Assembly (NCBI GenBank): GCA_040954595.2 | Contig: CM082597.2 | Span: forward strand, 9,889,778-9,953,777 | Length of the DNA stretch: 64,000 bases | From: Balanoglossus misakiensis | Taxonomy: Eukaryota; Animalia; Hemichordata | Direction: 5' to 3' | Shown here: positions 5,072 to 52,146 of the stretch, piece after piece | Numbering within the stretch: position 1 is the first letter of the stretch | Layout: each line of letters opens with the position of its first letter | Translations under genes and position numbers: made by a program | Notes under the pieces: generated by a model | Told to the model about the DNA's origin: nothing | Seen by the model: the letters and a program-made list of their open reading frames with translations, nothing else | The model's database searches: none

Positions 5072-5085
5072 GTCAAAGGTAACTC

Positions 5086-19282: not shown

Positions 19283-19427
19283 TAATATGAGGTTATTACG
19301 AAAATTTCGCAAAGTATTGCACGAGGACATTAGCGGCATTAATCGCCTGATGCGTAGCAGAGGGCAATGCGATGCGCTTATGTTTGAGTGCATACTTTGC
19401 GGTATTAACGTAATAACCTTAATATTA
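19283..19427 (+). repeat. Hairpin cassette (Crypton-like) with G.A mismatches
   Basis: taatatgaggttattacg...cgtaataaccttaatatta arms; CGAG/TGAG mismatch; loop TGA-TGC-GTA-GCA-GAG. Confidence 0.65.
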
Positions 19428-19842
19428 TACATCTTACAATGGCTGGTATGATCGATCATAACCGCTCAGCTAAAAGACAGTTCACAGTGAGCGGCCATCT
19501 TTCTTTGTAGTAATTAAAAATTTCACCTAACCCTGTTGTTGTTTACGTTAGACTCAGAGTGGAGGTGTCTTGAAACCGTCCGCATTAACAGTGCATACAT
19601 GTACCTGTACACATTGAGTTTGGGTGCCTTGAAACTGTAGACGTATTTAACACACGTTCCATACGTACTGTTCTATTTTTCTCGGTGCCAGAAGTATAAT
19701 AATTAATCTTATTTACCCTTTAATTACTGGTACTAGTAAAACATGTTATAAGTTCACATGAGTGTTATTGCATCTGAGTAAATACAAGGCAGTGTAAACA
19801 CTAGTAGTTGCTCTCTGCTGGAGTGAACAATATGTACATGTA

Positions 19843-20153
19843 TTATAACACACCATGCAGCAAACCCTCAATCATGATTCGTCAATACGCTGTCACGTGA
19901 CCTTAGTCATTTCGAACTGTTCCCTAGGGCATCATTTCGATCAGTTTCCGCCCGGTACTGTTGCCTGGATGTGGTGTGTGTCGTGTTTGGTGTGTTATAA
20001 AACACATGATGACTGACATATTCGGGCAACAGTGTATTTTTGATGACCTCGGGACTGCCAGTCACACCAAAACAGTCTGTTTTAGTTGTGACTAGCAGCA
20101 CCCTCGGTCATCAAAATACACTGTTGCCCTCATTGTCAGTCATCATGTGTATA
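19843..20153 (-). mobile_element. Hairpin cassette (Crypton-like), minus orientation
   Basis: Short IR ttataacacacca / tggtgtgttataa around a body, then a long hairpin at 20002-20150 with CTCG/CTCG and TTCG/CTCA mismatches (G.A tandems on the minus strand). Confidence 0.7.
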
Positions 20154-20540
20154 CTGTACATAAGAACCGTATTTTTTTGGTTTTGAATTTAAAGCGGTTC
20201 TATGCCCTGTGAAGTAAAACACTTTATCAAGGGATCGCTAAATCCTCCAGATGTCAAAGCCCTTCTTGAAGGTGTCAACTCAGAGTGGTTATCACAACTT
20301 GTACAATCCTCATGCATGAAATTTAGAACTATTTTGGAACCGTTAAATGTGAAATTTTGAATTTATATACATACCCCGCTATACACTTTTGAGGTGTTAT
20401 TTTACTCTTTTTACCATTAAAATCCAACCAAAATATATGTATTGAGGTCAGGAGAAACATCTTTCAGAAAGAGGCATGTTATGGCTACTCTAACTAATGT
20501 AAGGCTTGTCGGAATCATTCATTTGCAGGTTGATTGGTGT

Positions 20541-20681
20541 ATGATCATCATAATGGTTGGAATGAGACTGATGTACCTGGCTTTGTTGTCTGTTGTGTTA
20601 CTCAACAACTTTATTGATGCACATGTTGCTGTTATGTCTCTTGATCTTGGAAGTGAATGGTACAAAGTAGCATTGGTCAAG
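20541..20681 (+). CDS. HYOU1: HYOU1/GRP170 coding exon 1 (signal peptide and start of Hsp70-type ATPase domain)
   Basis: Acceptor ttgcag ends at 20528. ATG 20541 (in-frame alternatives 20553 and later) gives MIIIMVGMRLMYLALLSVVLLNNFIDAHVAVMSLDLGSEWYKVALVK: a hydrophobic signal-like stretch, then the HYOU1-type VMSxDLGSE motif. Donor gtgagt at 20682, phase 0. Confidence 0.93.
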
Positions 20682-21182
20682 GTGAGTTAAGTTCCACACA
20701 AATTTATCTCCTAAATACATGTATATGTATTTCAAATGTATTGGAACTCGGTAGAGTTGACTTTTCAGAGCCCTCTGACTCAGAGCCCCTCAGAGCCCTC
20801 TGAAGTATCAGAACCTCAGAACCCGGACCTCAGAATTCTTGTTAACCTCAGATATAACCACAAAATGTACCTGTATAATTAAATATAACGATTACAAATA
20901 GGTATAATGTTGCCAAAATTACTCCAGCAGAAAATACGACGTACTGCATTGTATGGCAAGTGCGAGATCGTGACTGCCGATTACCCGCCATATTTGTTTT
21001 CGAAGTTTATGTCGATTTCAGATTCAGATTCAGCCACGGATTTCGATTCACCAGTAACATGTTACTTTTCTTTTTTGCTTGCATTGCATTACAAATATAA
21101 ACGTATTTTGTAGCACACGACAAAATAAATCGCAAGAAGAAACACCAAAAGAAGAGAATTTGGAAATCAATTCAATACTTAA

Positions 21183-21828
21183 CGTGGTAATGCACGAAAC
21201 CGTCAAGACTTTTTCAGAGGCCTATTTCTCTTCAAAGACAACATTAAAACCCCTATAAACCATACATTTTCTGGAAGCTGAGTTTTTGAACTTTTGTTTG
21301 AGTTGCACATTTCATTGACCCCCGGAAATGGTGGCGTTTTTGGGTTAAAAAAAAGCATTTTTTTGATATTATGTCATTCAATTGAAATTAGGTAAAAAGG
21401 TTGACCATGCATCATGCATCTTAGTATGTCATTCGAAACTAGAGTACACGTGCAAAAAAACCCGAAAATTTTGTTTTGTGTTATCTGCTTCCATTGAGGA
21501 GTAACAACGTTTGAAAGTTAGATTTTTAGAAAATTTGATCAAATTCAGGATGAGTTGTATTGAATCAGATTTTATTCCCGCCAGGGACACTTTATCGACT
21601 AAAAAAATTCATTTTGTTAGATGGGTCATACACAATCCCCTGTTTAATAAAATTTGAGCAAATTTGGCCAACACAGAGTGAAGCTAAATTCTTCTGAATA
21701 TGTCAAAAGCAGCAAAAATGCAAACTGAGAAAAACGGACATTTGCATTGTTGACACCTATTCATTAAGCTGTGGACTCATTCAGAAAAGTGCTATTTTTG
21801 GGTGATTATGCACCATTTCCGCCAAGAC
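21183..21828 (+). mobile_element. Kolobok-like element, partial copy 2
   Basis: Colinear with 629-~1240; preceded by TTAA. Confidence 0.8.
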
Positions 21829-22080
21829 AAATGTCAAATAGGTATATATTTCTTGCTAAAAATTTACAAACAAGCAGTTAAATTTCAAAGAGTTTATTCC
21901 AAAACAAGAAAAAACAATAAATACATACATAATATGTAAACATGAATAATATCAAATCACTTTTGATAAAAAATAATCTAGGCAAGGAAAACAAGTTTCT
22001 GAAGAAAGTTTTCTTATTGTAATAGCCACATCATATCTGCATGATCAATATTACCACAATGAGAAATAACCCCTGCACAA

Positions 22081-22277
22081 ATAATGAACACCTATTGCCT
22101 GGCCATGAGGGCCATAGCAGCCGTTTATTACATCCGAGGGGCTGTGAGTTACCAGAATCATATGCTAATATGATTACGGCCTTGGGAAATAGCATATGAT
22201 TCTGGTAACTCACAGCCACGAGGGGGTAAAACGGCTGCTATGGCCCAAATATAGGCCAGGCCATAGGTGTTTTATAA
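22081..22277 (+). repeat. Hairpin cassette (Crypton-like)
   Basis: aacacctattgcctggcc...ggccaggccataggtgtt arms with in-register CGAG (22135-22138) / CGAG (22219-22222). Confidence 0.7.
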
Positions 22278-22459
22278 TAAACCTCATGCTAACAGTTTGG
22301 AAAATCTTGCAATTTTCTCTTGAGGTTGGCAGACGACATCTTCAGGGGTGGCCATTGTGTCAGACGACGCAACGTTGGTCACGTGACCGGTTTATATTTT
22401 TTCTGCTATTCAAGAAGCAAGAGAAGCAATTTCCTAGTACTTCTCCTTGATACTGAAAT

Positions 22460-23180
22460 TCTAGACACCAAAGGTGTAAATGGTAGATTTATCTAAGTTG
22501 TAAATTGTATTTTGTCAGGAACTTTATTTTCACTTTGTAATATTTATGCCCCAAACTCTTTAATTTAAAAGGAGCATTTTTCCTTTTTCCAAAGTACCCT
22601 TGACGTACTTAACAATTTTGAATTGCCAAATCTTATCATTGGTGGCGATATTAACTGTCTTGCCAACAGTAGAATTGATAAGCGAGGGGAGAATCCCACG
22701 TTGGATAAGTCTAGTAAAGTACTGATTACACTTTATAGGATGTTCAATGTCAATGACAGCTGGCGCTTGAAAAATCCATACATCTGCATTTACCTTCCGC
22801 CACAATTCCCCTTTGGTGCTTACATGTCCTGATTATCTGTTCTCATCAAAACACCTTAATGATTACATAGAGATACACTATTATACCAGCCATTCTGATG
22901 GATCTTTTTAACCTTAAGAATTCTGTTTGAGGGGGGAATTTGGAGGCTTAATATATCTGTGTTGAAAGATGAGATTTATTTGGAGAAAGGTTAAAGAAAT
23001 TTTTAATAATGTCACGGCGGAGATTTCTGACCTGTCAGCACAACTGAAACTTGAAATTTTTAAGTTAAAAGTTAAAGATTTCTCTATTAAATTTACGCAA
23101 GGGAAAGCAAAAGCGCGCAGAGAGGAAGTAATTTCTCTGGAAAATAGGCTCGCTAATTTAGACAAGCATATTGATGCAGT
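22460..23180 (+). pseudogene. Highly decayed L1/Tx1 endonuclease-region fragment
   Basis: LCNIYAPN, LIIGGDINC..DK and KLKVKDFSIKF remnants; a further ORF2 fragment (VIWNKARILVNNKSVF) at ~27620-27770. Confidence 0.7.
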
Positions 23181-23312
23181 GTTGCAGCCAGAGCGCACCC
23201 TTGCGACAATGTCCCCAAAACTGAAGCCATGGGCGCAGTTTCTGGCATACTGCGGGTCACCACGGGCGCGCACTCTGAGTGTAAAAAATAGCCGGCGCTA
23301 ACATACAAATGT

Positions 23313-26140
23313 TTAAGCAATAAAACTCCCCCAGCCATGGTATACCACGAGATTTTGACCAGTTCACGACATATACGCACGAGCGATAGCGAGTGCGTAT
23401 ATGGAGTTGAACTGGTCAAAATCGAGTGGTATACCACGGCTGGGGGTGTTTTATTGCTATTTAGAGAATAATGAACGCCCCAAAGACCCATAATGGACGA
23501 AAGCACACATTGTGCGTCATAATATACGAGGCGAAGCCGAGTATATTATGGAGCACAATGTGTGCTTGAGTCCATTATGGGTCTTTGGGGCGTTCATTAT
23601 TCTCATTATTTTATAGTTTTGTCAATGCCAGTGAATTTGCAGACTTCAAAAAGTATAGGTGCGAACAATTCAGACTCGGACACGGAGATCGAGAACAGAG
23701 CAATGGCGTACGCGTAAACAAAAGGTCACCTGATCGCGGTGTATCAGAGTACTGTACGTTTCTTGTATCATATTCAAACATCAGGAAATAAATAATGAAG
23801 GTTTATTAACGCATGTGAAAATTCATTTAAGGGTTCTGCTGAAATATATCTGAAAAAGTTTCGATTTTTGTGTAATCTTGGGGAGGACTCGGGGAATATT
23901 TGAATTCGTTTGCGTTCTCAGGAAAGTTCACGTATACGGGCGCTCGGAAGGTTGCAATACATAAACAAACTCACCCTCGATCGACCCTTCGTACCGCGTA
24001 GACAACATGACAGTGACACTTGCGGCATAAATTTTTTTTACGTATAGCTTCGTTGACATGACTGCTTGGTACATGGTACACGGTGAACGAATGTCAAATC
24101 CAGCATCATCGAGAGGTTTGCTTTACGTGCGTGAGCGAGCCATGTTGACTGCGCGTGATTCAAGAGCAGACGACGTGTACCATGTGTACTGCAGCCGTAG
24201 GAAGACAAAATAAACAAAACGCCAGTCGAGGACAGATTTGGAAATTAATAAATATCGCCGTTTTTATTCTGTGTACGTTTGCATTTCTTTTTTTAGCCCT
24301 CTAAATGTTCGCATTGTCTGAAAACTTCCGTTATTCAGTCGGAAATTGTACACGTCCACTGGTTCTTGGGTGCGTCGCGCGTCCATCGAATAACACGATA
24401 CATTATCAGTAATAATGTATAGCTATGACGTCACAAAATTCAATGGTATTGATAAAGCTATAATATATTATATTATACCAGTATATTGATGGTGTAAATC
24501 ACGCTATTTGATTGGTCGAGACACGACACGTGACCGTGATATATTAGCCATATACCACAGTCATATATCATAGTTAAAGAAAATGCCTTTTTAAAATGTT
24601 TTATGCAAAGTTTCAATATACTGGCATAATATAATAGCAATAAAACACCCCAGCCATGGTATACCACGAGATTTTGACCAGTTCACGACATATACACACT
24701 CGCTATCGCTCGTGCGTATATGTCGTGAACTGGTCAAAATCTCGTGATATACCATGGCTGGGGGTGTTTTATTGCTTAAATATTACATATGTACCGTCGA
24801 TTACTTGCACCGAGCGCGCACGTAACATAGGTATTTGCACTCAGTGCAATACCAAAAACATTATGCCATACCTGTATGCAAATGAGTTTGTTACCGGAAC
24901 TACCTTTTGGTTGTAAACAAATCGTCTACCTCACAGATCAGTCAACCTTTGCGTGGTCTAGCTGCAATCGTTGACTGTTTCAATGGGTTTAGCTAAAATA
25001 CGCAAAGGAAGGTTACACGGACAAAAACTAAATAGCTGTTATTGGCGGGACATAAATTTATCTTTTATTTCAATGTGAACGAGGAAACACCAGCACAACC
25101 GCATCGCATCATCGTCGCATCGGACGCCGTCGTCCAGCGTTGCCTTGTCAAGAGCCGTCCCAGGCCACGCATTGACCGATTTGGACGATGAATAGCTCGT
25201 GAAATATTATTTCGGGACTTCCGTGTGGTGACGTTCTTAATATTTTGAACGTTTTGCTTGTATGTGACATTGGGCATTCCTGAGACGTTCCGATTTCATA
25301 GTCTGACACTCGCAGTTTCGTGTTTGTAGCATACTAATGCCGACATCTCGTCAAAATCGCGATCGTTCAGGTTGTTTTGTTCATGCGAAGGACGGCACCT
25401 ACAGTAGATTTTTTATAATTCGTGTCTTAGGTACCGTACGTGGGATTTAAATTTTCTGATTTTTCACAGTATACATGTATTTATCTTGTATTATCGTTTA
25501 ATTCCACCGCCATAGCGATTTATACATTTCTAGATGCCGCGGTACTTGTTGTATGACCCCGGCCTGTGACCCGTAAATAAGTAAACAACATTGTCCAATC
25601 AAAGATGGGGGTGTGGTGTTACTGGCCAATGAAAATTTTGATGACGTAATCGTACTGTGACCTGTTCACGAAACAAGCAATATCATTACGCGGTCTCATT
25701 TATTTCATTTTCGGTCTTTTTTTCAAAATGGGATGAACATATGTAATAATAACAGAACCCCATGGCTCGATCGTGCAAGCACGGCGTACCGGTATTATTT
25801 GCACTCGTGCTGGCGGTGTATTCTTGGTGCCCCCCGCACTCGCTGTCGCTCGTGCGGGGGACGGGCGCAAGAATACACCGCCAGACACTCGATGCAAATA
25901 ATACCGTTACGCCGTGCTTGCACGATCGAGCCATGGGGTTCTGTCATATTATATTGTACCGGTACATGTATATTGAAACTTTGCATAAAACATTTTGAAA
26001 AGGCATTTTCTTTGACTATGAGTTTGGCGTGATATATGACTGTGGTATATGACGAATATATCACAGTCACAATTACTCACATGTCGTGTCTCGACCAATA
26101 AAATAGCGTGATTTACACCATCAATATACTGGTAATATAA
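23313..26140. mobile_element. Cluster of nested hairpin cassettes (Crypton-like non-autonomous elements)
   Basis: Four long hairpins (23313-23460, 23461-23604, 24636-24779, 25749-25947) and IR-bounded bodies (23612-24462, 24472-24630, 24781-25748, ~25955-26140), abutting at TA-rich junctions without TSDs. Confidence 0.75.
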
Positions 26141-26260
26141 TTCCTGATAACTGATGGGTGTACGCGTACAATGAGATTCACTTGTCACAGTTTATGACCT
26201 TATGACCTGTAATCGATACTGATAACATCTTCATAGCAAAGTTGTAGCAAACTTGGTTTA

Positions 26261-26753
26261 CTGTCGTTCCCATCTGGATTCGAACGATAATGTTGATCTA
26301 AATGTTACTATACTTGCACATTTGGTTTGCCAAGTTGTTCCTTATCTTACTTCAGTTTCGGCGCCCAGTTGCTGATGTTGCGGTAAATTCAAAGAGGTTA
26401 TATCGAGATTGATAACAATACTAACAGTGGGGTATTACGGGTGTCGTAATCGTCTTACACTTCACATTGCTTGCTAAAGCAAGACTTTTATCTACGCGTG
26501 CTTTTACCACACACAGGGCTATTAAATAAAGTCAGGGTAGCGCCAATCAGTTGACTCGTTTTATTGTCTTATTTAAACAAACTGGCGAAGCATCCTACCG
26601 GGTAAGAAACCATTAATCCTGTTTGTGTTTGCCGCAAAGCATATAAACTGTACAACAACTGTAGCAAAGTTGGAATCAACTTCACAAACCAATTACACAA
26701 GTGTGATAACATTTAGATCAACATGAACGTTCGAAGCCAGATGGGAATGACAG
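26261..26753. mobile_element. TA-flanked TIR element
   Basis: TA|ctgtcgttcccatctgg ... ccagatgggaatgacag|TA; absent from the paralogous host repeat (26150-27560 vs ~52865-53855). Confidence 0.8.
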
Positions 26754-26914
26754 TAATGTTGAATTTGATACAGTTTACATACAGGCAGCCACCCTCTTGG
26801 GAATTGTAATAGTAATACATTGCGATATCACGCCTATATATCGGACTCAGCTGTGCAGGCAGTGAACTACCGTGACTCCAATTGCTTCTGAAACCAACTC
26901 TGTCAATGAGTACC

Positions 26915-27325
26915 TAGCCCGGAGACCAAGGCGTCGGGGAAAAGAAACGCCCGGGGACAGTCTCTATTTATGAACAGAATTCTGTGCGTAGAACGACACG
27001 GGTGGTAAATCTTGCATGTAAGCTAATTGGTCACTCAATGTAAACCAAATGACATCATCGCATTCTAAATAAGGAAATAGAGGCGTGAAATTCCCGTGAA
27101 GGGATGTGGGAGTGGTTTTGAAGGTGTATGAATATTCATAACCAAGCTTTGTTAATTATATCATCCAACCACTGGCGCCCGTCAACATTTGATAGATCAC
27201 TCGTTATCCATTCGTTACTAAGCAACCCTGATCGTTGCCAGGGCTACTATCTTTCAGCTCGGCAGGAAATTGCTCGACTGTCCCCGGTCGTTGTATTCTA
27301 GATCGACGTCCTGGTCTCCGGGCTA
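26915..27325 (+). mobile_element. ~415-bp MITE, TAG..CTA termini, 9-bp TSD (AcademH- or MULE-type), copy 1
   Basis: atgagtacc|tagcccggagacc ... ggtctccgggcta|atgagtacc. Confidence 0.92.
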
Positions 27326-28717
27326 ATGAGTACCAGCAGTCTCAGTTTTGTTGAAAATCCCCCCATTGAACTTTTAATATAGATTCAACTGCTAATTTCT
27401 TGGATAAGACTCCAAAAAGACAGAGTTGAGAGTATTCTTATTACATGCTTTAGGACCCCTAGCCAGACAACAGTTGATCTTGGAATGAATTCCCTAGCTT
27501 TTAGAAATACCCTATGGATTTTATATAATGGGGAACAAGTTTTCTCAAATTTACTCCTAAAATAATAAAGGACTTGAAAGAATAAATTAGTCATTTTTCC
27601 TCCACCCCTCCAGCTGAGCAGGTTATTTGGAATAAGGCCAGGATTCTTGTCAATAACAAGTCTGTTTTTCATCCTTATTTGTATAAAAAGGGGGGATTAT
27701 TCATCTTTCTGATATTTTGGTAAAAACTCTAAATTTAGAAATGAAGCAGATTTAAAAGATCTTAAATGTAATCAAAATCAGAAAAGTAAAACAAAGATGC
27801 ATAAACAGTAATCAGCAGTGAATTTAATTATCAGAACAATAGTGATAAGATCTTGACTGTTGTGAACACGTGATTTGTACAATTTGTACAAAATGCAGGT
27901 TAAAGTATATGGTCATTGTGACACAGACCAAGGAGTCTGAGTGTTTTATTAAAAACATCAAATTATTGTGTATGTGTGTGTACGTGTAACGTTTATGCAT
28001 GGACATACATGTATGTCCATGGTTTATGTTGTCCCCATAATATGGAAAATGTCCCCAAAAATAAATAGTGCGGGGACACAGTGTCCCCTGTTATAAAATT
28101 CCTGGCTGCAACACTGTCACAATCTTTCATCTGCATCTTGTCCTAGTGTGTTTCCAAAATATGAACCCCTTAAAAGATGTGTAATGAGGGAAGTGAATCA
28201 GTTGTGTTTTGTTTTAGGGTCACGGTGATACATGTACAGACCACACATGACTTTTAATACATGTATTTATCATTGATAGGAAAAGCAGTTAGTGTTTCTT
28301 TTTTACGCTATGGTCAGTACATTCCTTCTTTTTAGCTCAATGTACACCAAGGACCCCTCCCCCCCAGTAAAATGACAATGGAACCCCTAGTAACATTTAC
28401 CTTGGTACCAACTGAAGCAAAACATTACATATTGCTTCAGATATTGATCTCACATAATGCACAGAGATATGTTCGGCATTGTCTTTTTAAGCTCCAGTAA
28501 CTCAGACTTTAGGCTATCTTTCCAGTATTTTTGTTTTGGCTATCAACTGTGGTTTTTTGTTCTACTCTTTAGCTAAAGACAGAACATTTCTTAAAGCTGT
28601 CCAGAGTAGAATAAAAATTCAGGAGTTGATACGCGAGGATGACAGAAAAATTCTGAAATAATAGCTAAAAGTTAGAGTTACTGGGGCTTTAAATTTCTGT
28701 TTTACTTTGTCTTGCAG

Positions 28718-28749
28718 CCTGGAGTACCCATGGAAATAGTATTGAATAA
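28718..28749 (+). CDS. HYOU1: HYOU1 coding exon 2 (32-nt micro-exon)
   Basis: cttgcag|CCT...AA|gtaagt; encodes PGVPMEIVLN(K), the conserved HYOU1 motif; ends phase 2. Confidence 0.95.
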
Positions 28750-28847
28750 GTAAGTATGCTTTTACGAGATTTGCATAATTTATTATTTTGTTACATGATG
28801 ATTTACACTTTACAGTATTTCTCCATGTCCAAAAAACTTTATATTAA

Positions 28848-29191
28848 AGGGACAAAGTCTCTCTTTCTCTGCCCTTTTTCCATTAATTATGTTTGATACA
28901 AGACACCATTTATGTTATTCTTCATGTGGATATATAGTGAATGATCGTTCGACCACACACAATTTCCATCCTGCTTGTAGGATTTGAGAGTCAAAATCTT
29001 GCAAAAATGAATAAATGGTAAACACCGATTATTCATTTTGGCGAGTTTTTTAATCTTGTGTCTACAAGTGGGATGGAAGGTGTGTGTGGTTGAACGTTTA
29101 TTCACTATATATCCACATGTAGAATAACATAAACGGCGTCTTGTATCAAACATAATTAATGGAAAAAGGCCAGCGAGAGAGAAACGTCCCT
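28848..29191. mobile_element. Palindromic TTAA-flanked MITE (Kolobok-like)
   Basis: TTAA|agggac ... gtccct|TTAA with long internal inverted symmetry. Confidence 0.8.
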
Positions 29192-29576
29192 TTAAGTATA
29201 ACAGTGTTTATTTGTAGGTAAATTGTTCTATGAAATTTTAGAATGCAAATGGTTTTAAAAGTTATTATCACATTGTTGACGAAGCGGAATTCCAAAAATC
29301 ATATTGTACAATGTACATCCTGCAACATATGCATTCTGTATACTATTGTTTCTAACTACCTGGCCCATAAACAAAGACATGTGTACATGTGTGTTACCGG
29401 TATAGCCTTCATTGATTTTGAGGAGACTTTTGATCAAATTCACATTGCACAATGTTTTACATGTATAAATTATTAAAATGTGGCTGGAGATGTAAATTGA
29501 TCTACTTAGTTAATATGTATTGACGTTACTACCTTTTTGTACATTTTAGGTGGTGAAACAAACATGTATTGTTTAA

Positions 29577-30080
29577 AGGCACATAAGCTGTAACTTTTGG
29601 GATAATTTTCATAATTTTTGTTTCAAACTGCACTACCATTAGTCCATGCAGATGATGGCAGTGAACAATACACAAGCATTATAAATCCTAAATATGAGTG
29701 CATATGCAAGTTTTAACCAGATAAATAATAAACCTTTGCCGCAAGCGATTATGGCCGCCACCGTGGGAAAATGCAAGAAACAATGAAAATGTTGCATTTC
29801 CGGTTGTGAAACTTCATAAACAAAACATGATCTCATCCACTTGAGCTCATGGAAGTAAATGTACACCACTGAGACATCAGATTTTCATTTTTCATTGCAA
29901 TATTGCACTTTTTTTAAAATTGCAGGAATTTTCGTTTTTCTTTAATTTTTGGCCATTTTGTCATAAATAAGTGTTGAGCTTGATATATTATCATGAAATA
30001 GCATTTAATAGACATAATTAAAAGCATATATGAGATTATTTAAAACTTTAATTTTTTATCCAGTTGCAGCTTACGTGCCT
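29577..30080. mobile_element. TTAA-flanked MITE (Kolobok-like)
   Basis: TTAA|aggcacataagctg ... cagcttacgtgcct|TTAA. Confidence 0.8.
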
Positions 30081-32579: not shown

Positions 32580-35500
32580 AGTGTTTTGTAACAAAGCAAG
32601 GGAGGTGGGCAATTACATCACAGAGAAGAAAATCGACTTGCTTGCCATTACTGAAACCTGGCTGAAAGAGAATGCAAATCAGCATGAAATCAACGAGTGT
32701 GTACCAATTGGTTACTCATTCCAACAAAGTCCTCGTCTCAGTGCTACAGGTTGTGGCTTGGCTCTTGTCTACAAGTCATCCGTAAAGCTTTTGTCCTGGA
32801 AACAACTGCATGAATTTAAATCCTTAGAGGCAACTGAAGCTATCCTCACATATCAGAATATTTCTATTAAATTGGTTATTGTCTATCGTCCACCACCGAA
32901 TTCAAAGAACAGGTTAACTGCGTCAACGTTTTTGACAGAGTGTGGATCTATGCTTGTGCAAGTAAATTCATATGATGGACATTTATTCATAGTTGGTGAC
33001 TTTAATTTTCACCACGATAATAAGTTGAATTCCATTACTACAAAGCTGTTTGACGTGATCGATTCTTGTGGACTTACGCAGCTTGTGCAGAAGCCAACTC
33101 GTGTCAAGGGTCATATACAATGTACTTGACCTGATCATGACTAGTTCTGACCATGTTATTGATTCCATCTGTGTGGATGACGTCCCTCTCTCCGACCGTT
33201 ACCCTATTCATGCTACATTATCACTTGGTAAACCAGCGCTGCCGAGACGTCAAGTTGTTTATCGTAAACTTTCATCCATTTCTGTTCAGGCTTTTGCAAA
33301 TGACATTACGACAACCGGTTTCCTAAATCAGACACCAGACGACCTGCAATCTGCAGTTTCAGCTTATAATTCCAACCTTTCTGCTATCCTGGACAAACAT
33401 GCACTCATAAAGAAGCTGGTCAAAACTGTTCGACCAAACACCAAGTGGTATACAAGTGAAATTCATCAAGCTAGAAAGCTAAGAAGATCAAGTGAGCGAA
33501 AATGGTGCAACACAAAACTAGAAATTCATAAACAAATTTACAAGTTTCACTGTCAGCTTGTGTACAATCTGATTCGCTCCACAAAATCGAAGTACATTGT
33601 ATCACGCCGATCTTATCCGGAACAAAAAAGATAATCAGAGGACTCTTGCCAGAGCAGTGTCGTTTTTATGTCACAGTCAAGTTTATCTCCTAACCCATAC
33701 ATCTGTCAATGAACTCACAGAGCGTTTTTCACAATACTTTACCAAGAAAATCACAGATATCAGGAATACTCTGGACACTAGTACAGTCATTGGACAGTTT
33801 GATTCAGTTGAACTCTGCACTGATTCTACTCTGTCTGCATTTCAATCAGTACATGTAAGTGTAGACTTGGCAAAGAAAACCATTCAGAAATCGCCCACCA
33901 AGACGTGTTCTCTTGATCCAATGCCTACATTGCTGTTGAAACAATGTCTTAGTCCACTTCTCCCGTTCATAACACAGTTCATCAACTCATCACTGCAGTT
34001 TGGTGTGGTTCTATCCTTCTTCAAGTCGGCCACCGTTACACCTCTGCTTAAAAAACCCACCCTGGATTACAATATTCTTAAGAATTACCGACTGGTTTCT
34101 AACCTACCATTCCTCTCCAAGGTTCTTGAGAAGATAGTTGTCTCCCAGATCAATAACTATCTTGCCATGAATTCACTTCTGGAGCCGTTGCAGTAAGCAT
34201 ACCGCAAATTCCACAGCACCGAAACAGCTTTTCTGAGAGTCCACAATGACATCTGCACAGCACTCAACTCGATCTACTCATCTTACTTGATCTTTCTGCC
34301 GCACTCGATACCATTGATCACGGGATAGTTCTTCATAGACTATCGAACCATGGCATCTCAGCACAGTATACATGGTTTACGTCCAACCTTCATGATAGAC
34401 ATCAAACTGTAATCATCGAAAACAGAGCAAGTTCACCGTCACCTCTCGTATACAGGGTGCCACAAGGCTCTCCCTGGCCCTCTGCTGTTCACCATTTATA
34501 TAGCCCCACTTGGTAAACTGATGTGTCCCCACATCCTACAATTTCATCAGTACGCTGATGATAACCAGCGATACCTTGCCTTTTCCCATCAAGATTCAAC
34601 CTCTGCCGTTCAATCTCTGGAGATCTGTATCCATGACATAAAGGCATGGATGACGCTGAATAAACCAACTAATTGACAACAAAACCGAAATCTTTATTAT
34701 TAGCTCAAAATTTTAGTCATCTTCCTGATCCTATTCCATAATAGGATCAGGAAGATGACTAAAATTTTGAGCTAATAAGAAAGAATGTGCGACGGCTGGA
34801 GTCAAAGTATTGCTCGACAAAGCTCGAGATTGATCGGCAGATTTTTCTGATAAAGCGAACTGAATATTTTCGCCGCTGTGACGAATCAAAGGCCGACTAC
34901 CATCGCGCTCGCATCCAAGAGGCAGATAACAAGAAGTTGTTTAAGATCGTCTCTGAGCTATCTGATACGAAAGCTATCAACGCTAAAGCTGTACCCAGTG
35001 AAATTCCATTGAAGGAACTACCATCCAGATTCCTGAGCTATTTCAATTCTAAAGTTGCCAATCTTCGTGAGGGCCTTATCAGTTGCAGTACTGACACCGG
35101 CAACACCTTACCACCTCACAATTTACCAACTTTCAGTGAGGTGTCCATGCATCAGGTTAGTACTCTTATTGAACGGGCAGCTCCAAAATCATGCGATCTG
35201 GATATTCTCCCGACAATCTATATCAAGAAATTCGCCTATGTTCTTGCACCGTTCATTACGCAGCTCTTTAATGCATCACTATCATCTGGCGTCGTTCCCA
35301 GTCATTTTAAATCTGCGATCATTCGGCCATTGCTGAAAAACCCGGACCTTGATCCAAACAGTCTGAAGAACTACCGACCTGTGTCAAATCTGCCATTTCT
35401 ATCGAAATTACTTGAACGGGTTGTTGCCTCGCAATTGAACATTCACCTGGCTAATCATTCACTGTTAACCAAGTTCCAAAGTGCGTATCGCGCTCACCAC

Positions 35501-37315
35501 AGCACAGAGACTGCCCTTCTGCGTGTGCATAATGACATCATGCTCACTCTCAACGAAAAGAAAGATGTTCTCCTTGTCATGTTGGACTTGTCTGCTGCCT
35601 TCGATACGGTGGACCATGATATACTCCTTCACAGACTTCAATTCCGTTTTGGCATCACTGGTAAAGCTTTATCATGGTTCAGATCCTATCTCAGCAATCG
35701 TAATCAGCGTGTAAAGATCGGTTCATTTACATCATCCAGTTCAAATATGACATATGGCGTCCCCCAAGGTTCTGTTTTGGGACCGATTCTCTTCACACTG
35801 TATACAGCGCCTCTTGAAGACATCATTGTCAAGCATGACTTCAACTACATGTTGTATGCCGATGACTCGCAGATTTATGTTGTGTGCAAGAGACCTGATG
35901 AAGTTCAAGTTCCTCTTGAGATATGCGTAGACGAAATTCGCAGGTGGATGAGATCCAATATGTTGATTCTTAATGACAATAAGACAGATGTGATTCAGTT
36001 TTCGTCACGTCTGAGATCAGAGCGGTGAAAATTTCCAGCCTTAGGATAGGCGAGTTTGATATAGCCCCGTCGACTTCAGTTCGCAATCTTGGTGTTAAGC
36101 TCAACAACGACGGTTCCGCTTCTGATCATATTAGTCATGTCTGCAGGAAAGGTTTCTATGCACTATCTAGAATTGGCAAGATCCGCCCATTATTGGACAA
36201 ACATACAACGGAAAAGATGGTCCATGCATTCATTACATCTCAGCTTGATTATTGTAATAGTCTCCTGTATGGTATTAATAAGGCTCAGCTGGATCGCCTA
36301 CAATCGCTTCAAAATGCTGCGGCTCGTCTCGTCTCCCGGACTCGGAAGTTCGATCACATCACACCTGTTCTCATTGATCTGCACTGGCTGCCGGTTGATG
36401 CTCGCATCAAATTCAAAATTTTGTTAACTACAACCTATAAAATCATTCATCGCTTTGCACCACTGTATTTAATCGATTTGCTTGAAATTTACACCCCTGT
36501 CAGAGATCTCAGATCAGCTGACTCTTTGCGGTTGGTGCCACCTCGTGGAAAGGCATATGGGCAGAGAGCATTCTCTGTTTGTGCACCTGCTCTGTGGAAT
36601 TCGCTGCCGCCTGTGATTCGCAACGCCAGATCTGTTGACTGTTTTAAACGCCGTTTAAAAACTCATCTTTTCAATCATATTTGTGATCGAATTTTTTAGG
36701 ATAATCTTCTGTATGTTTTTTAGACGGACTTTTAATTGGGAATTTTAACTGAGACTTTTTAATTTTTCTGCTGCTTTTATGATTCTTTTATTACCGTCTT
36801 TTGTAACTCGCACTGAGACGTATGTGTAGTGCGTGTAAGAAATAAATATTATTATTATTATCTATCACTCCAGTTACAACAGCACGAAATCTGGGAGTTG
36901 TCTTTGATAGTATCCATATGTACAATGTATAACCAGCACATTAAGAATACCTACAAGTCCATCTGTTTTCATCTTCGACGCATCGGATCAATACGTCAGT
37001 ACCTGTCTTCTTAGGATTGTTGTACTTTAATTCATGCAGTTCTTTCAACCAAACTTGATTTCTGCAATTCGTTACTGTTTGGTTTTCCTCAATCTGCAAT
37101 TAATCTACTTCAGCGCTCGCAAAATACAGCAGCAAGAATCATCACCCGGTCGAAGAAGTTTGAACATGTCACTCCCGCTCTCATCTCTCTGCATTGGCTA
37201 CCAGTTTGTGCCAGGATTAAGTACAAGATCTTGCTTCTTACATATAAGGCCATTCATGGCCTTACCCCGGAGTACATTGCTGACATGGTTAATCGATATA
37301 CCCTTTCACACAGCT
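32580..37315 (+). pseudogene. Decayed CR1-group (L2-like) LINE ORF2, split by a younger LINE
   Basis: APE motifs LAITETWL, VYRPP, VGDFN, LDLI and SD; RT motifs NYRLVSNLPFLSKVLEK and YADD. After 36861 it resumes SITPVTTARNLGVVFD...LHWLPV. Stops and frameshifts present. Confidence 0.9.
34779..36860 (+). mobile_element. Younger 5'-truncated L2-like LINE (RT and C-terminus, one frameshift near 36025)
   Basis: ORFs 34787-36028 and 36025-36699 with NYRPVSNL, DLSAAFDTV, GVPQGSVLGP, YADD and LHWLPV; 3' UTR ends aataaa(tat)n; no TSD. Confidence 0.93.
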
Positions 37316-43275: not shown

Positions 43276-43374
43276 GTACAGTGGTTTTTCAACATGATGA
43301 TGCTACATATTCACCAGAGGAGCTTCTTGGAATGATAATGAATAGATCAAGAGAAGACGCACAGGATTTTGCTG
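43276..43374 (+). CDS. HYOU1: HYOU1 coding exon 5
   Basis: ttaaag|GT ACA...GCT G|gtatgt; (G)TVVFQHDDATYSPEELLGMIMNRSREDAQDFA with the Hsp70 SPEE motif; 99 nt. Confidence 0.94.
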
Positions 43375-43519
43375 GTATGTTTATACAGTAATATTTTTGA
43401 CAATGTAATTATGTTTATTCAGTAATGTAGGCTACTGGCCTTTGTTTTACATGACATAGTGATTACATTATCTATGTGGGGCCAATCCATATACTTTTTC
43501 ACTGAGTATGTACATCAAC

Positions 43520-44340
43520 GCTTTCGAGTCGTTTCGGCACCGCGGAGTTTCGGCCCCAGTCACTTCGGCACCCAATTTTCACGACCCCGGTCTGTACGGC
43601 CCCGACACCCCAGTCGTTTCGGTACTTATCGGTAGCCTTAAGTAAAATTGAATAAAACGTATGTATTTTTCCTGAGACTGTTATAAAAGTAATAGTGGTA
43701 ACCCTAGCAAAAGTAAAATTCAAGCAGACGGGACTAGGAAAATGCAAATTCATAGCAGCGATTAACACAATCGATGGCATGTTTTATCGGTCATTATGCA
43801 AATACATCTTTATTGGTCATTATGCAAATACATCTGTATAGCTCCACAAAGCAGGTCGCGCCGACAAAGCACTGAGTCGCGCCACACTATATGCCATTCT
43901 ACCCGGTTGCAATGCTGTTTAGTTTTCTCACTTTAAGTTAAACTTGTATTCGTATGGAAGAAATAAAAATTTCGTATAACATATTGCTTTAAATGTACGT
44001 GCTGTAACCTAGGCCACAAACTTGGCACGCGTCGGGACTATAATTTATGCACGCAGAACCATTAGATGATGTTTACCTATTTCATTAGCTACATTAAAAT
44101 GATACTGTACAGGAAGCGAGAACTAATTCAACTTGTTACTTATCTGAAAGACTGTGGCGCCTGATGATACCCTTTTAATACGGGTATATACCCGGGGGAC
44201 CTACAGCCAAGTTTAGTTGGGCCATTACAGATAAGTACCGAAACGACTGGGGTGTCGGGGCCGAACAGACCGGGGTCGTGAAAATTGGGTGCCGAAGTGA
44301 CTGGGGCCGAAACTCCGCGGTGCCGAAACGACCTGTTACC
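43520..44340. mobile_element. MULE-like element with ~105-bp subrepeated TIRs and 8-bp TSD
   Basis: acatcaac|gctttcgagtcgtttcggcacc ... ggtgccgaaacgacctgttacc|acatcaac. Confidence 0.88.
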
Positions 44341-44421
44341 ACATCAACTGTAGTTTGGACTTTTGAAGCTCAAAACTGTAAAAAAATATGCTTTGAGAGA
44401 TTGATTTGAGTATGTGCGTTT

Positions 44422-47400
44422 TTACATATAATCCCATGATATCTTTACGGGCCCAAGCCAAGCCAGGCTTGGGCCCGTATTGGTTTCGTTGGAATTTTTT
44501 ACGGGCCCAAGCCAAGCCAGGCTTGGGCCCGTATTGGTTTCGTTGGAATTTTTAGGGCCCAAGCGCAAGCAAGCGCTTGGGCCCTATTGGTTTCGTTGGG
44601 GTTTTTCTTTCTTTCTTTCTTTCTTTCTTTTTTCTTGTGTCAATTCTTCGGCCAACTAAATCTCTGAAACTACTGCAGGTACACTGCTCAAACTTGCTAC
44701 AGTGGTCAAGGTCTATGAGTAGATGTGCAGTGACTTGTGAATACTTAATTAGTCATGTGACCTGGCGGCCATATTGGATTTTCTGAAAAAAATCAAATCT
44801 CAGATCTCAGAAACTACAAGTCAGATCGACTTCAAATTTGGCATGCAGGTAGACTACCTTCTACCCATCATTTTTGTAATTGGAAATTTTGCTGTCAATG
44901 TTGCAGTTTTTTTGCTACAATTTTTTTTATGAAATCTGGCTTAAATTTCAAAAATCTTCTACTCCAGAACCGGTGATAACCGAGACACGGGGTTTGGGGT
45001 ATGTGGTCACCTAACTGATGTCTATCAAGTTTGCGAAGATCATTGTGATTGTGATTGCGAAGATTATGGCGGCCATATTGGATTTTCGAAAAACCATAGT
45101 TAAACTCCAAAAATCTTCTTCTCCAGAACGGGCGATAACTGAGTTGCAAGATTCGGGGAGTATGGTCACTACACTAATGTCTATCAAGTTTGCAAAGAGC
45201 ATTGTGATTGGTCGAAGATTATGGCGGCCATATTGGATTTTGTAAAAAGCAGTGAAAATTTGAAATTCCTTTTTCTAGTCTAAAAATTGATAGCATACAA
45301 ATTCTTTTTATGGATATCAATCGTCATGTGACTAAAATAGGTTACAATTTTTTGGCGATTTTTCACATGACCTTTGACCTACTTATCACGCGGTATTATT
45401 TCTGCATATCTAATTCCAGGCTAACCTATAGGTCTAGACGTTTGGTTTTTGATGAATGTGGATTAGTGTGTGATCAAAATATTTTGCTACTTTTCATGAC
45501 CCCTTTGACCTCTGCTGACCTCATTAAATGTGCGCATACCTAATTACAGATGAACCAATAGACCTAGAGGTTTGGTTTTTTTGGACATGGATTAGTATGG
45601 GGTCAAAATATTTTGCCCAAATGTTGGGTGACCTCGGGTGACCTTTGACCTAATTTTTGCATATCTCGACATCCACAGCAGATACAGCCTTGGCGTTTGG
45701 AGATATGGGGCCATAATGAAAAGCCAAAGTTTTGGGTCACCTGTGACACCTGCTTAACTCATTATTTATGTGCATACCTAATTCCGGGCTAACCAAAAGG
45801 GCTAGAGGTCTGGTTTTTGTTGGACATGGACTACTTTGGGTCAAAATTTTCTGCCCAAATTTTGGGTGACCTCAGATGACCTTTGACCTATTTTTGCATA
45901 TCTCGACATCCAAAGCAGGTACAGTCTGGGCATTTGGAGGTATGGGGCCATAATGAAAAGCCAAAGTTTTGGCTCACCTGTGACACCTGCTTTACGCATT
46001 ATTTATGTGCATACCTAATTCCGGGCTAACCAAAAGGGCTAGAGGTCTGGTTTTTGATGGACATGGACCACTATGGGTCAAAATTTTCTGCCCAAATTGT
46101 GGGTGACCTCTGGATGACCTTTGACCTACTTAACACTATATCAGCACCAAACATAGATATAACCTTGATATTTCATTTGCTAAAACACAGCATTATGTTT
46201 CTACTCATTAATTATGTGCATATCTAATAATCAGATCAGATAATAAAGCTTGGGCCCGGACAATGCTGCTTGCAGCTTTAATTAGGGCCCAAGCGCATAC
46301 CAGCGCTTGGGCCCTATTGGTTTCGTTGGGGTTTTTCTTTCTTTCTTTCTTTCTTTCTTTATTCTTGTGTCATTTCTTTGTCGCTCTAGATCTCAGACAC
46401 CGCTGCAGGTACACTTCTCAAACTTGCTACAGTGGTCAAGGTCAATGGGTAGTCGTGCATTGAACTCTTGAATTTTTAATTAGTCACGTGACATGGCGGC
46501 CATATTGGATTTTCTGAAAAAATGCAAATCTCAGATCTCAGAAACTACAAGTCAGATTTACTTCAGATTTGGTGTGCTGGTAGTGTACCTTCTGCCCATC
46601 ATTTTTGTAATTGGATATTTTGCTGTCAATGTTGCAGTTTTTTTGCTACAATTTTTTTTCTGAAATCTGGTCAAAATTTCAAAAATCTTCTTCTCCAGAA
46701 CTGGCGATAACCGAGTCACGCGGTTTGGGGTATGTGGTCACCAAACTGAGGTCTATCAAGTTTGCGAAGATCATTGTGATTGGTCGAAGATTATGGCGGC
46801 CATATTGGATTTTCGAAAAACCCTAGTAAAATTTCAAAAATCTTCTTCTCAAGAACCGGCGATAACTGAGTCACAAGATTTGGTGTGTGTGGTCATTAAA
46901 CAGATGTCTATCAAGTTTGCGAAGATGAATGTGATTGGTCAAAGATTATGGCGGCCATATTGGATTTTGTGAAAAACAATTAAAAAGTAAAAATTCCCTT
47001 TCTAGCCTAAAAATTGATAGCACAGAAATTCTTTTTATGGATATGAATCATCATATGCCAAGAATAAGCTGTAAATATTTTGGTAATTTTGGCAATGACC
47101 TTTGACCTACTTTTGACGCATCATTTTTCTGCATATCTAATTCCTGGCTAACCAATAGGGCTATAAGTTTGGTTTTTGATGTATGTGGATTTGTATGTGA
47201 TCAACAAATTTTGCTACTTTTCATGACCCCTTTGACCCCTGCTGACCTAATTAATTATGTGCATAGCTAATTACAGGCGAACCAATAGACCTAGAGGTTT
47301 TGTTTTTGTTGGACAGGAAAAGTATGGGGTCAAAATTTTTTACCCAAATGTTGGGTGACCTCTGGTGACCTTTGACGTACTTTCGCAAATCTCAGCATCC

Positions 47401-50400
47401 ACAGCAGATACAGCCTTGGCGTTTGGAGGTATGGGGCCATAATGAAAAGCCAAAGTTTTGGGTCACCTGTGACACCTGCTCAACTCATTATTTATGTGCA
47501 TACCTAATTCCGGGCTAACCAAAAGGGGTAGAGGTCTGTTTTTTGTTGGACATGGACCACTATGGGTCAAAATGTTCTGCCCAAATTGTGGGTGACCTCT
47601 GGGTGACCTTCGACCTACTTAACACTATATCAGCACTAAACATAGATATAATCTTGATATTTCATGGGATAAAACACAGCATTATGTTTCTACTCATTAA
47701 TTACGTGCATATCTAATAATCAGATCAGTTAATAGAGCTTGGGCCCGGACAATGCTGCTTGCAGCTTTAATACTTTCTTTCTTTCTTTCTTTATTCTTGT
47801 GTCAATTCTTTGACCCACGAGATCTCAGACACCGCTGCAGGTACACTTCTGAAACTTGCTACAGTGGTCAAGGTCAATGAGTAGTCGTGCATTGAACCCT
47901 TGAATTTTTAATTAGTCACGTGACCTGGCGGCCATCTTGGATTTTCTGAAAAAATGCAAATCTCAGATCTCAGAAACTACAAGTCAGATCGACTTCAAAT
48001 TTGGCATGCTGGTAGACTACCTTCTGCATGTCATTTTTGTAATTGGAAATTATGCTGACAAAGTTGCAGTTTTTTGCTACAATTTTTTTTCTGAAATCTG
48101 GCTTAAATTTCAAAAATCTTCTTCTCCAGAACCGGTGATAACCGAGACACAGGGTTTGGTGTATGTGGTCACCTAACTGATGTCTATCAAGTTTGCGAAG
48201 ATCATTGTGATTGGTCGAAGATTATGGCGGCCATATTGGATTTTCGAAAAACCCTAGTAAAATTTCAAAAATCTTCTTCTCAAGAACCGGCGATAACCGA
48301 GTCACAAGATTTGGTGTGTGTGGTCATTAAAAAGATGTCTATCAAGTTTGCTAAGAAGAATGTGATTGGTCGAAGATTATGGCGGCCATATTGGATTTTG
48401 TGAAAAACCATTAAAAAGTAAAAATTCCCTTTCTGGCCTAAAAATTGATAGCACATAAATTCTTTTTAAGGATATGAATCATCATATGACAAGAATAAGC
48501 TATAAATATTTTGGTAATTTTGACAATGACCTTTGACCTACTTTTGACGCATCCTTTTTCTGCATATCTAATTCCAGGCTAACCAATAGGGCTATAAGTT
48601 TGGTTTTTGATGTATGTGGATTTGTATGTGATCAAAAAATTTTGATACTTTTCATGACCCCTTTGACCTCTGCTGACCTCATTAAATATGCACATACCTA
48701 ATTACAGATGAACCAATAGACCTAGAGATTTTGTTTTTGTTATACATGGACCACTATGGGGTCAAAATATTTTGCCCAAATGTTGGGTGACCTCGGGTGA
48801 CCTTTGACCTACTTTTCCATATCTTGACATCCACAGCAGATACAGCCTTGGCGTTTGGAGGTATGGGGCCATAATGAAAAGCCAAAGTTTTTGGTCACCT
48901 GTGACACCTGCTTAACTCATTATTTATGTGCATACCTAATTACGGGCTAACCAAAAGGGCTAGAGATCTGGTTTTTGTTGAACATGGACCACTATGGGTC
49001 AAAATTTTCTGCCCAAATTGTGGGTGACCTCTGGGTGACCTTTGACCTACTTAACACTATATCAACACCAAACATAGATATAAACTTGATATTTCATGGG
49101 ATAAAACACAGCATTATGTTTCTACTCATTAATTATGTGCATATCTAATAATCAGATCAGATAATAGAGCTTGGGCCCGGACAATGCTGCTTGCAGCTTT
49201 AATCTTTCTTTCTTTCTTTCTTTATTCTTGTGTCAATTCTTTGACCCACGAGATCTCGGACACCGCTGCAGGTACACTTCTGAAACTTGCTACAGTGGTC
49301 AAGATCAATGAGTAGTCGTGCATTGAACCCTTGAATTTTTAATTAGTCACGTGACCTGGTGGCCATCTTGGATTTTCTGAAAAAATGCAAATCTCAGATC
49401 TCAGAAACTACAAGTCAGATCGACTTCAAATTTGGCATGCTGGTAGACTACCTTCTGCCCATCATTTTTGTAATTGGAAATTATGCTGACAAAGTTGCAG
49501 TTTTTTGCTACAATTTTTTTTCTGAAATCTGGCTTAAATTTCAAAAATCTTCTTCTCCAGAACCGGTGATAACCAAGACACAGGGTTTGGTGCATGTGGT
49601 CACCTAACTGATGTCTATCAAGTTTGCGAAGATCATTGTGATTGGTCGAAGATTTTGGCGGCCATATTGGATTTTCGAAAAACCCTAGTAAAATTTCAAA
49701 AATCTTCTTCTCAAGAACCGGCGATAACCGAGTCACAAGATTTGGTGTGTGTGGTCATTAAACAGATGTATATCAAGTTTGCTAAGAAGAATGTGATTGG
49801 TCGAAGATTATGGCGGCCATATTGGATTTTGTGAAAAACGATTAAAAAGTAAAAATTCCCTTTCTGGCCTAAAAATTGATAGCACAGAAATTCTTTTTAC
49901 GGATATGAATCATCATATGCCAAGAATAAGCTATAAATATTTTGGTAATTTTGGCAATGACCTTTGACCTACTTTTGACGCATCATTTTTCTGCATATCT
50001 AATTCCAGGCTAACCTTTAAGGCTATCATTTTGGTTTTTGATGTATGTGGATTTGTATGTGATCAAAAAAATTTGCTACTTTTCATGACCCCTTTGACCT
50101 CTGCTGACCTCATTAAATATGCACATACCTAATTACAGATGAACCAATAGACCTAGAGGTTTTGTTTTTGTTATACATGGACCAGTATGGGGTCAAAATA
50201 TTTTGCCCAAATGTTGGGTGGCCTCGGGTGACCTTTGACCTACTTAACACTATATCAGCATCAGATCAGATAATAGAGCTTGGGCCCGGACAATGCTGCT
50301 TGCAGCTTTAATTCTTTGTTTGACGTCATCGTATACGAGTGGTTTTCGCGAGCAGTGCAACTTCGAGCCGCAGGCGAGAAGTTGTACGCTTCCGCGAAAA

Positions 50401-51163
50401 CCACGAGTATACGATGACGTTAAACAAAGAAAGATATCATGGGATTATATATTTATCACATGAACAGTCTTCTTATTTTTCGTTAGAAGAGGCAGGACTA
50501 AAAAAATTCAGTACCTTGCAACAATTTTGAAGCGGTGTCGTATTTTACTGAGCGGGATTATTTCCCCCAGGAGATATATGTTGGGAGATTTTGCATATAC
50601 GCAAATGATGAACTATCGCTGATCATTCATAAAATCTCCCAACAAGTCGTACCGTTGAGTTCTGTTCGCTCGAAGTTCGGCCTTACACAAATGTAATCGA
50701 TTCTCTAACAATTTTACTGCGACCTGTTGCCACGTCTTATACATTTCGTTGACCGGTGGAATATAGAGGTTCAGTCGTCACGCTGAACTGGCTCGAAACA
50801 ATTGCCCACACTGATTCGACTCGGAACGTACCGGACTTGCGCCTAGCCTAGGCTATGTACACCTGACCCAAAACTTTGACAGCCACGATCGTCCATGATC
50901 GTTGCGTCGACTGTCTTCTTTCCAAATTCCACCTTTCTGTTTTGAGCTTACAAAGCGTTATTGTCATGGAACCGTCATTTTTTTATTTCATTTCTGTATT
51001 GTAAATGCCGCGTGCTACACGTACTGTTTCTGTTTGACAACAAAGCTACGGCGAATCGGTGGAAATAGTTCCGGTTGATGACGTAACACAGGGGTGATCT
51101 GGATTTTTGATCTGTCCTGGTCTACGTCACACAGGTGGTGATCAGGGCCAGTTCATGTGATAA
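44422..51163 (+). mobile_element. Hairpin cassette (Crypton-like) copy 1, split by the Helentron-like stack
   Basis: ttacatataatcccatgatatc at 44422, resumes ctttgtttgacg at 50314 and ends gttcatgtgataa; intact sister copy at 51245-52146. Confidence 0.85.
44447..50311 (+). mobile_element. Four Helentron/DINE-1-like (HINE) elements, nested and tandem
   Basis: 5' subTIR gggcccaagc with inverted partner, (CTTT)n tract, 3' subTIR gcttgggccc plus stem-loop gctgcttgcagc, inserted in a T-run with no TSD. Bodies at ~44552-46281, 46282-47770, 47771-49202 and 49203-50311. Confidence 0.88.
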
Positions 51164-51244
51164 TGAGATGTATATTATCTTGCTAATTTGGACAATGTAG
51201 GAGTTTTATAATATCAATAACATTCTGGTAAAAACTATGTATTA

Positions 51245-52146
51245 TTACATATAATCCCATGATATATTTCTTTGTTTGACGTCATCGTATACGAGTGGTT
51301 TTCGCGGAGCAGTGCAACTTCGAGCCGCAGGCGAGAAGTTGTACGCTTCCGCGAAAACCACGAGTATACGATGACGTTAAACAAAGAAATATATCATGGG
51401 ATTATATATTTATCACATGAACAGTCGTCTTATTTTTCGTTAGAAGAGGCAGGACTAAAAAAATTCAGTATCTTGCAACAATTTCGGAGCGGTGTCGTAT
51501 TTTACTGAGCGGGATTATTTCCCCCAGGAGATATATCTTGGGAGATTTTATGAATGATCAGCGATAGTTCATCATTTGCATATACGCAAATGATGAACTA
51601 TCGGTGATCATTCATAAAATCTCCCAACAAGTCGTCCCGTTGAGTTCCGTTCGCTCGAAGTTCGGCCTTACACAAATGTAATCGATTCTCTAACAATTTT
51701 ACTGCAACCTGTTGCCACGTCTTATACATTTCGTTGACCGGTGGAATAGAGAGGTTCAGTTGTCACGCTGAACTGGGTCGAAACAATTCCTCACACTGAT
51801 TCAACTCGGAACGTACCAGACTTGCGCCTAGCCTAGGCTATGTGTACCTGACCCAAAACTTTGACAGCCACGATTGTCCATGATCGTTGCGTCGACTGTC
51901 TTCTTTCCAAATTCCACCTTTCTGTTTTGAGCTTACAAAGCGATATTGTCATGGAACCATCATTTTTTAAAATTTCATTTCTATATTGTAAATGTCGGTA
52001 CACGTACTTTTTCTGTTTGACAACAAAGCTACGGCGAATCGGTGGAAATAGTTCCGGTTGATGACGTAACACAGGGGTGATCTGGATTTTTGATCTGTCC
52101 TGGTCTACGTCACACAGGTGGTGATCAGGGCCAGTTCATGTGATAA
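51245..52146 (+). mobile_element. Hairpin cassette (Crypton-like) copy 2, intact ~900 bp
   Basis: Long hairpin at 51245-~51408 with loop CGAG-CC-GCA-GG-CGAG, then a body bounded by ttatcacatgaac / gttcatgtgataa; second internal palindrome at ~51540-51625. Confidence 0.85.

Follow-up and report, generated by a model that had tools for sequence, protein, structure and literature searches.

GA-polarised end hairpins in gene-less repeat families of Balanoglossus misakiensis and beside CryptonA recombinase genes

The animal Cryptons catalogued by Kojima and Jurka have no terminal repeats, and their termini are entered as 'n.d.' in the available text (PMC3212892); in the fungal Glomhoppers, repeats are variable or lacking (PMC13465315, in excerpt). 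The mechanism of Crypton transposition is undemonstrated and a double-stranded circle is assumed (2026 review, PMC13565253). Recombination through a folded single strand is familiar from bacteria, where it serves integrons and the CTX phage; for the elements described here it is a prediction. According to the excerpted sources, attC and CTX attP sites share with these elements the primacy of structure over sequence, a strand favoured by unpaired features, G-T pairs, a GAA loop (many attC bottom strands end in GAA; PMC5027507), and, on our model, a single strand exchange that is resolved by replication, as completed in integrons (PMC5027507, PMC3458562). An attC site differs in that one hairpin suffices to form it, with extrahelical bases and a conserved AAC, whereas the site predicted here uses both element ends. 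DIRS elements resemble ours in having an internal stretch that can pair with both joined ends (and is essential in DIRS-1), in single-stranded DNA intermediates and in insertion into their own kind; they differ as retroelements with a reverse transcriptase and long inverted repeats, whose mirror is presumed to rebuild the ends ahead of a double-stranded circle, and a GA/GA code is not described for them in the text available (PMC7192593). Strand-biased circularizing integrative elements of Vibrio are again similar in that their tyrosine recombinases copy out a single strand and no empty donor remains, but these elements are bacterial, carry four genes and have sites without a detected attC-like fold (PMC9345347, in excerpt).

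The window analysed here is the whole 64,000-nucleotide stretch of the Balanoglossus misakiensis genome. It is animal DNA of 39% GC, with a long-intron gene, LINE remnants and many repeats. An HSP70-family exon with a Pfam HSP70 match is present at 59386-59712 (its end is also given as 59715), and a further exon of an HSP70-family gene at 20530-20683, which by eye resembles the beginning of HYOU1/GRP170, signal peptide included. LINE reverse-transcriptase ORFs of 921 aa (7343-10108, minus strand) and 421 aa (34763-36699, plus strand) were also found. Foldback or long-TIR repeats at 28850-29185, 3316-3680, 625-1338 and 21179-21827 served as controls; the first and third of these have TTAA at both ends and are presumably Kolobok- or piggyBac-like. 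Seven sequence-unrelated, gene-less families sit within the animal intron, each with a long end hairpin.

Read along the strand on which GA stands opposite GA (the GA strand), the elements have a common layout: a hairpin A..A' reaching the very end, then B', a body of 170-950 nt, and B. Stem length is 54-94 pairs, and the distance of B' from the element end is 145-200 nt. Each end pairs with an internal segment and never with the opposite end, so that ordinary terminal inverted repeats are lacking. The gap between A' and B' is at most 4 nt in four of five window elements by an automatic measure that is noisy, being disturbed by AT-rich over-extension or degraded stems; as A' and B' lie no more than a few bases apart, the A'B' segment is a mirror of the element's ends when joined. 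The B'..B pair is 12-25 nt long in five of the seven families. It exceeds shuffled sequence in A (minus-strand copy), B, E and G (0 of 200 shuffles each) and in C (p 0.035), which lends statistical backing to the claim of a first-pass annotation that in five families the hairpin abuts a body bounded by a second short inverted repeat. For families D and F there was no clear excess over shuffles.

Family D is represented by a degraded terminal hairpin with a GTA apex (19283..19427, plus strand), its body and far end being uncertain. The family E element, about 310 nt long (19843..20152, minus), has its body within B'..B and a hairpin at 20002-20150 with two GA/GA loops and a deleted apex, and the family F hairpin (22081..22275, plus; far end not found) has one GA/GA and one GA/AA loop and a replaced apex. 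The motif apex is thus absent from both window copies; contigs of other copies of E and F carry a CGAG..CGAG apex. The family G element (51245..52148, plus) has a hairpin at 51249-51407 with two GA/GA loops and a GCA apex, followed with a gap of 0 by B' at 51408-51422, which forms a 15-nt perfect repeat with B at 52134-52148. Its sister copy, also with two GA/GA loops and a GCA apex (50314..51164, plus), is separated from its first bases (44422..44446, plus) by an insert. The annotation's sister copy '44422/50314' is therefore real, but position 44422 marks only the split-off first 25 bases, and no hairpin. Positions 1856-2607 hold a third, decayed copy resembling family G. The family G body also contains a nearly perfect 90-nt palindrome without GA/GA (51538-51627), half of which is missing from the sister copy (50590-50642).

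Families A, B and C form a nest at 23313-26140. The outer family A element begins with a hairpin of very high copy (23313..23458, plus; three GA/GA loops, GATA apex), and its body and 3' end follow only at 25954..26140 (plus). At the hairpin/body joint of this outer element lie, end to end, a family B element (23459..24467, plus; hairpin 23464-23604 with two GA/GA loops, a GT/GA loop and a GAA apex, B' at about 23607, B ending at 24467), a second, complete family A element of about 315 nt (24466..24780, minus; hairpin 24633-24780 with only the apical GA/GA kept) and, adjoining it, a family C element (24781..25953, minus; hairpin 25749-25947 with two GA/GA loops and a GACA apex, body bounded by B'..B). 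The second family A copy (24633-24780, minus) was missing from the annotation's list of hairpins.

Contigs from three runs of one sample contain an empty site of the whole 23308-26140 block (joint 23307 to 26141), with only TT at both joints, which fits insertion between T and T without duplication. This is the one true empty site seen, and with no duplication beyond TT it agrees with the proposed lack of target-site duplications; the nested joints have 0-4 AT bases in common. Summed depth over the hairpin bins ranged from thousands to about 190,000, compared with 40 at a single-copy exon bin (run X1), depth not being equal to copy number.

The mismatches were scored with a Watson-Crick-only, strand-neutral stem aligner, applied alike to the named hairpins and to 12 other hairpins of the window, each of at least 60 nt, as controls. 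Among the two-by-two loops, GA/GA made up 12 of 17 in the seven named hairpins and 0 of 23 in the 12 controls (Fisher p 1e-6), and all three in two sister copies. GA/GA and TC/TC never occurred together in one hairpin, which sustains the observation that GA stands opposite GA on one strand. On that strand the hairpin comes first and the body second in all seven cases (in family D by eye). Counted from the apex, the GA/GA loops are found at 2-3, about 13 and 26-32 pairs. Hairpin coordinates and motifs quoted in the first-pass annotation all agree with the sequence, and its five motif apices were recovered as the five intact ones, GATA, GAA, GACA, GCA and GTA. The statement that every hairpin carries GA/GA in register is qualified by degraded family D, which scores 0 of 2 with the aligner and whose GA/GA appears only in a register with G-T neighbours. 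GA/GA is fixed across copies of family A, whose hairpin had 0 positions varying at a share of at least 8% in two runs. Structure is indeed conserved over unrelated sequences, as had been proposed.

Single G-T and A-C mismatches on the GA strand numbered 3 versus 2 in the window, a weak difference. Predicted folding favours the GA strand by 0.4-4.3 kcal/mol; the strand differences of control hairpins are as large, and fold energy was therefore discarded as evidence. In the second family A copy, one of three GA/GA loops is kept and the 3' arm is a perfect complement of the 5' arm. Judged from its sequence, this copy looks like a product of fold-back (quasi-palindrome) correction, which would mean that the hairpin forms in vivo. 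Corrected, fully complementary family A forms occur in the contigs at a depth of 753 versus several hundred thousand, by a counting method that undercounts them.

No recombinase gene or remnant was found in the window, as annotated: Pfam returned 0 matches for 43 body ORFs of at least 45 aa, and tblastn of metagenome-derived recombinase ORFs longer than 200 aa returned 0. Because the element bodies are without recognisable genes, CryptonA genes elsewhere were examined for ends of this kind. A recombinase motif was used to fetch 120 loci from marine metagenomes, and 77 were kept (at least 1 kb, GC at most 55%) after removal of 40 short and three GC-rich ones. DUF3504 was recognised in eight of nine ORFs tested, the ninth being a GC-rich bacterial integrase.

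Within 3 kb of the motif there are 57 hairpins, 30 GA-polarised and 27 unpolarised. GA-polarised hairpins are concentrated about four-fold near the gene (30 in 302 kb versus 7 in 293 kb farther away; p 1e-4, for loci from few hosts that are statistically non-independent), compared with 27 near and 22 far for unpolarised ones. The GA strand runs from the hairpin towards the gene in 28 of the 30 and away from it in two; counted by sequence cluster (n = 17), 15 are inward, one is outward and one is mixed, and the distant GA-polarised hairpins are likewise mostly inward (6 versus 1). A GNA or GNNA apex is present on the GA strand in 18 of 28 hairpins and on the other strand in one of 28. Of 26 testable cases, 13 had B past the gene, which gives elements of 1.4-2.8 kb, and in the other 13 B was not significant; A' and B' lie at most 4 nt apart in 7 of 16 locus hairpins by the same noisy automatic measure. 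Single mismatches on the GA strand were G-T in 36 and A-C in 19 instances (p 0.03, weak, the loci being non-independent). At 16 of 29 loci with ample flank, an inward strict-GA hairpin was absent within 3 kb.

For 13 hairpins, which lie upstream, GA strand and coding strand coincide; for 15, which lie downstream, the GA strand is the non-coding one. In a quick tree of 54 rows, one clade has the hairpin mostly upstream with GA coding, and the other groups have it mostly downstream with GA non-coding; the polarity is thus independent of transcription, which speaks against a role in RNA. The orientation of the recombinase gene relative to the hairpin end accordingly differs among CryptonA clades (L120-L199).

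Five window families have an end architecture like that of the loci. Family A also has a 13-base terminal word in common with locus L185, a 2.2-kb element set by its ends (p 0.007, seven tests), and the family C word is marginal (p 0.037). For five of the seven families no significant terminal word was common with the loci, and blastn of the window elements against the loci gave no link (best E 0.047). As the same end design stands beside DUF3504 genes of other animals, the window families are probably non-autonomous CryptonA derivatives, in keeping with the annotation's description of them as non-autonomous and Crypton-like. Absence of target duplication and abundance of non-autonomous copies are CryptonA traits, and the hairpin, the GA/GA code and the internal mirror are absent from the published descriptions as excerpted (PMC3212892, PMC5753468, PMC13465315); the window elements also differ from CryptonA proper in carrying no gene. 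The length of the GA-ended DUF3504 elements is close to that of CryptonA-1_OL (2073) and CryptonA-2_SK (2289) (PMC3212892, in excerpt). A literature search found no report of hairpin or GA/GA Crypton ends; Repbase/Dfam and subscription journals lay outside it and may record the hairpin.

The recombinase retains the catalytic columns R, H-x-x-R, H and Y. Its model (pLDDT 86) matches Cre with Z 17.2 (rmsd 4.1, 276 aligned) and the integron integrase IntI (2a3v) with Z 12.3, below Cre; in the model, the CryptonA recombinase fold is Cre-like without special closeness to IntI. The resemblance of the hairpins to attC, suggested by the first-pass annotation, stands as no more than an analogy. No common AAC core is evident by eye at the hairpin bases, and the predicted crossover layout is closer to the DIRS internal complementary region or to CTX attP than to attC. 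A homolog search with L185 gave 365 proteins; among the 120 matches listed, all named ones are from corals and anemones, and they are therefore uninformative on the present host.

We lean towards the view that these CryptonA derivatives are moved as a folded single strand by a recombinase acting in trans. Once the GA strand is exposed, A would pair with A' and B with B' on the internal mirror, and the two stems would stack. This pairing would place the two host junctions side by side across from the A'B' joint, at a core of the tyrosine-recombinase type, so that the predicted crossover site lies at the hairpin base and is built from both element ends on the mirror. A first exchange on the folded strand would yield a single-stranded circle, whose joint is a pre-paired site with a bubble of 2-3 nt; a second single exchange would carry the circle into an AT-rich target, where the copy would be fixed by replication. 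Folding of the GA strand may be both favoured and protected by its sheared G.A pairs and GNA loops, and owing to the G.A mismatches the double-stranded form would fall short of a perfect palindrome. NMR shows CGAG blocks containing sheared G.A pairs to be stable (PMC10085684, in excerpt), and GNA mini-hairpins are, in the text available, more stable as DNA than as RNA, nuclease-resistant and poorly bound by SSB (PMC13037366). The nesting seen at A'B' joints and at the ends of elements fits the model since these resemble the predicted site, and is equally compatible with Helentrons. There is about an even chance that animal CryptonA elements in general are eukaryotic single-strand recombination machines, with a structure-only code (a terminal hairpin with spaced sheared G.A pairs, a GNA loop and an internal mirror of the joined ends) and copy-out/copy-in by single exchanges and replication; one enzyme may then serve sequence-unrelated families.

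An unlikely though serious alternative is that the families are CryptonA derivatives moved by ordinary recombination of a double-stranded circle, the hairpin serving another single-strand step (priming of second-strand synthesis, SSB/RPA shedding, nuclease protection) or doing no more than interrupt a dangerous palindrome. The association with CryptonA genes fits this equally well, and it matches the published model (PMC13565253; PMC3212892, in excerpt). Mini-hairpins work at phage and plasmid priming sites (PMC13037366, in excerpt), the DIRS mirror is thought to act ahead of a double-stranded circle (PMC7192593, in excerpt), and the enzyme model is not specially near IntI. A double-stranded reaction would nevertheless have no need of an internal mirror in which the counterparts of the two ends lie a few bases apart, and palindrome breaking alone would not select GA/GA and GNA on one strand.

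The main competitor of another class is the Helentron: some or all families could be non-autonomous Helentron/HLE2 elements (HUH rolling-circle) with a long terminal stem-loop, moved by RepHel as single-stranded DNA, an intermediate established for that class. We consider this improbable. HINE/DINE-1 and HLE2-reverse elements are alike in topology, with paired subterminal repeats, one terminal stem-loop and insertion at TT without duplication, and they differ in a ten-fold shorter stem-loop that stands apart from the repeat and in their HUH enzyme (PMC4067079, PMC11417382, both in excerpt). A subterminal inverted pair of 11-18 nt, as used to recognise HLE2, is provided by B'..B in five of seven families, but the 5-10 bp palindrome and the subTIR 38-60 bp from the end of HINEs (PMC4067079, in excerpt) are not found, given stems of 54-94 pairs and B' at 145-200 nt. 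Long GA hairpins moreover flank recombinase genes, in a survey that covered recombinase loci. The window itself contains a Helentron-type (HINE-like) tandem insert at 44447..50313 (plus), whose subterminal repeats are short and whose 3' stem-loop spans 12 nt with 5 pairs; this insert is an in-window contrast, separate from the hairpin families. It entered a T run in the hairpin arm of the sister family G element and consists of four 1431-bp units with internal subrepeats of 155 and 237 bp; pieces related to it lie at 3969-6780.

DDE-type foldback elements or MITEs whose mismatches reflect decay are a very remote prospect. The window is rich in palindromic repeats, some TTAA-flanked at both ends, but not one of the 23 two-by-two loops in these controls is GA/GA, a motif that is fixed in family A. 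The families also have asymmetric ends, and at the empty site nothing beyond TT is duplicated, in place of terminal inverted repeats with a target duplication of fixed length.

For the preferred reading, movement of CryptonA derivatives as a folded single strand, the defined end architecture supplies a substrate that can be tested with purified enzyme, and a copy-type route would account for the very high copy numbers. The end design also offers an annotation rule for many unclassified palindromic repeats of marine animals. If the reading is true, a folded-single-strand recombinase would be native to eukaryotes and of interest for structure-directed DNA insertion, and the finding would bear on the domesticated DUF3504 proteins ZMYM2-4, QRICH1 and KCTD1.

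Viral sequences were searched as well. The recombinase motif gave 0 loci among them, and DUF3504 was found in 0 of 4 viral records, an uninformative outcome, as the controls were silent too. A gapped end pattern matched 85 viral loci, 0 of them with a long hairpin, and was rejected as chance. The apex 17-mer is present in 34 viral contigs, of which almost none has a long stem, and the mini-hairpin alone is therefore not diagnostic. Small viral contigs and phages that lack long stems repeatedly contain the CGAG-GC-GAA-GC-CGAG mini-hairpin, often in tandem (L002, L013, L029 and others), and this distribution suggests that it is a general motif stabilising single-stranded DNA.
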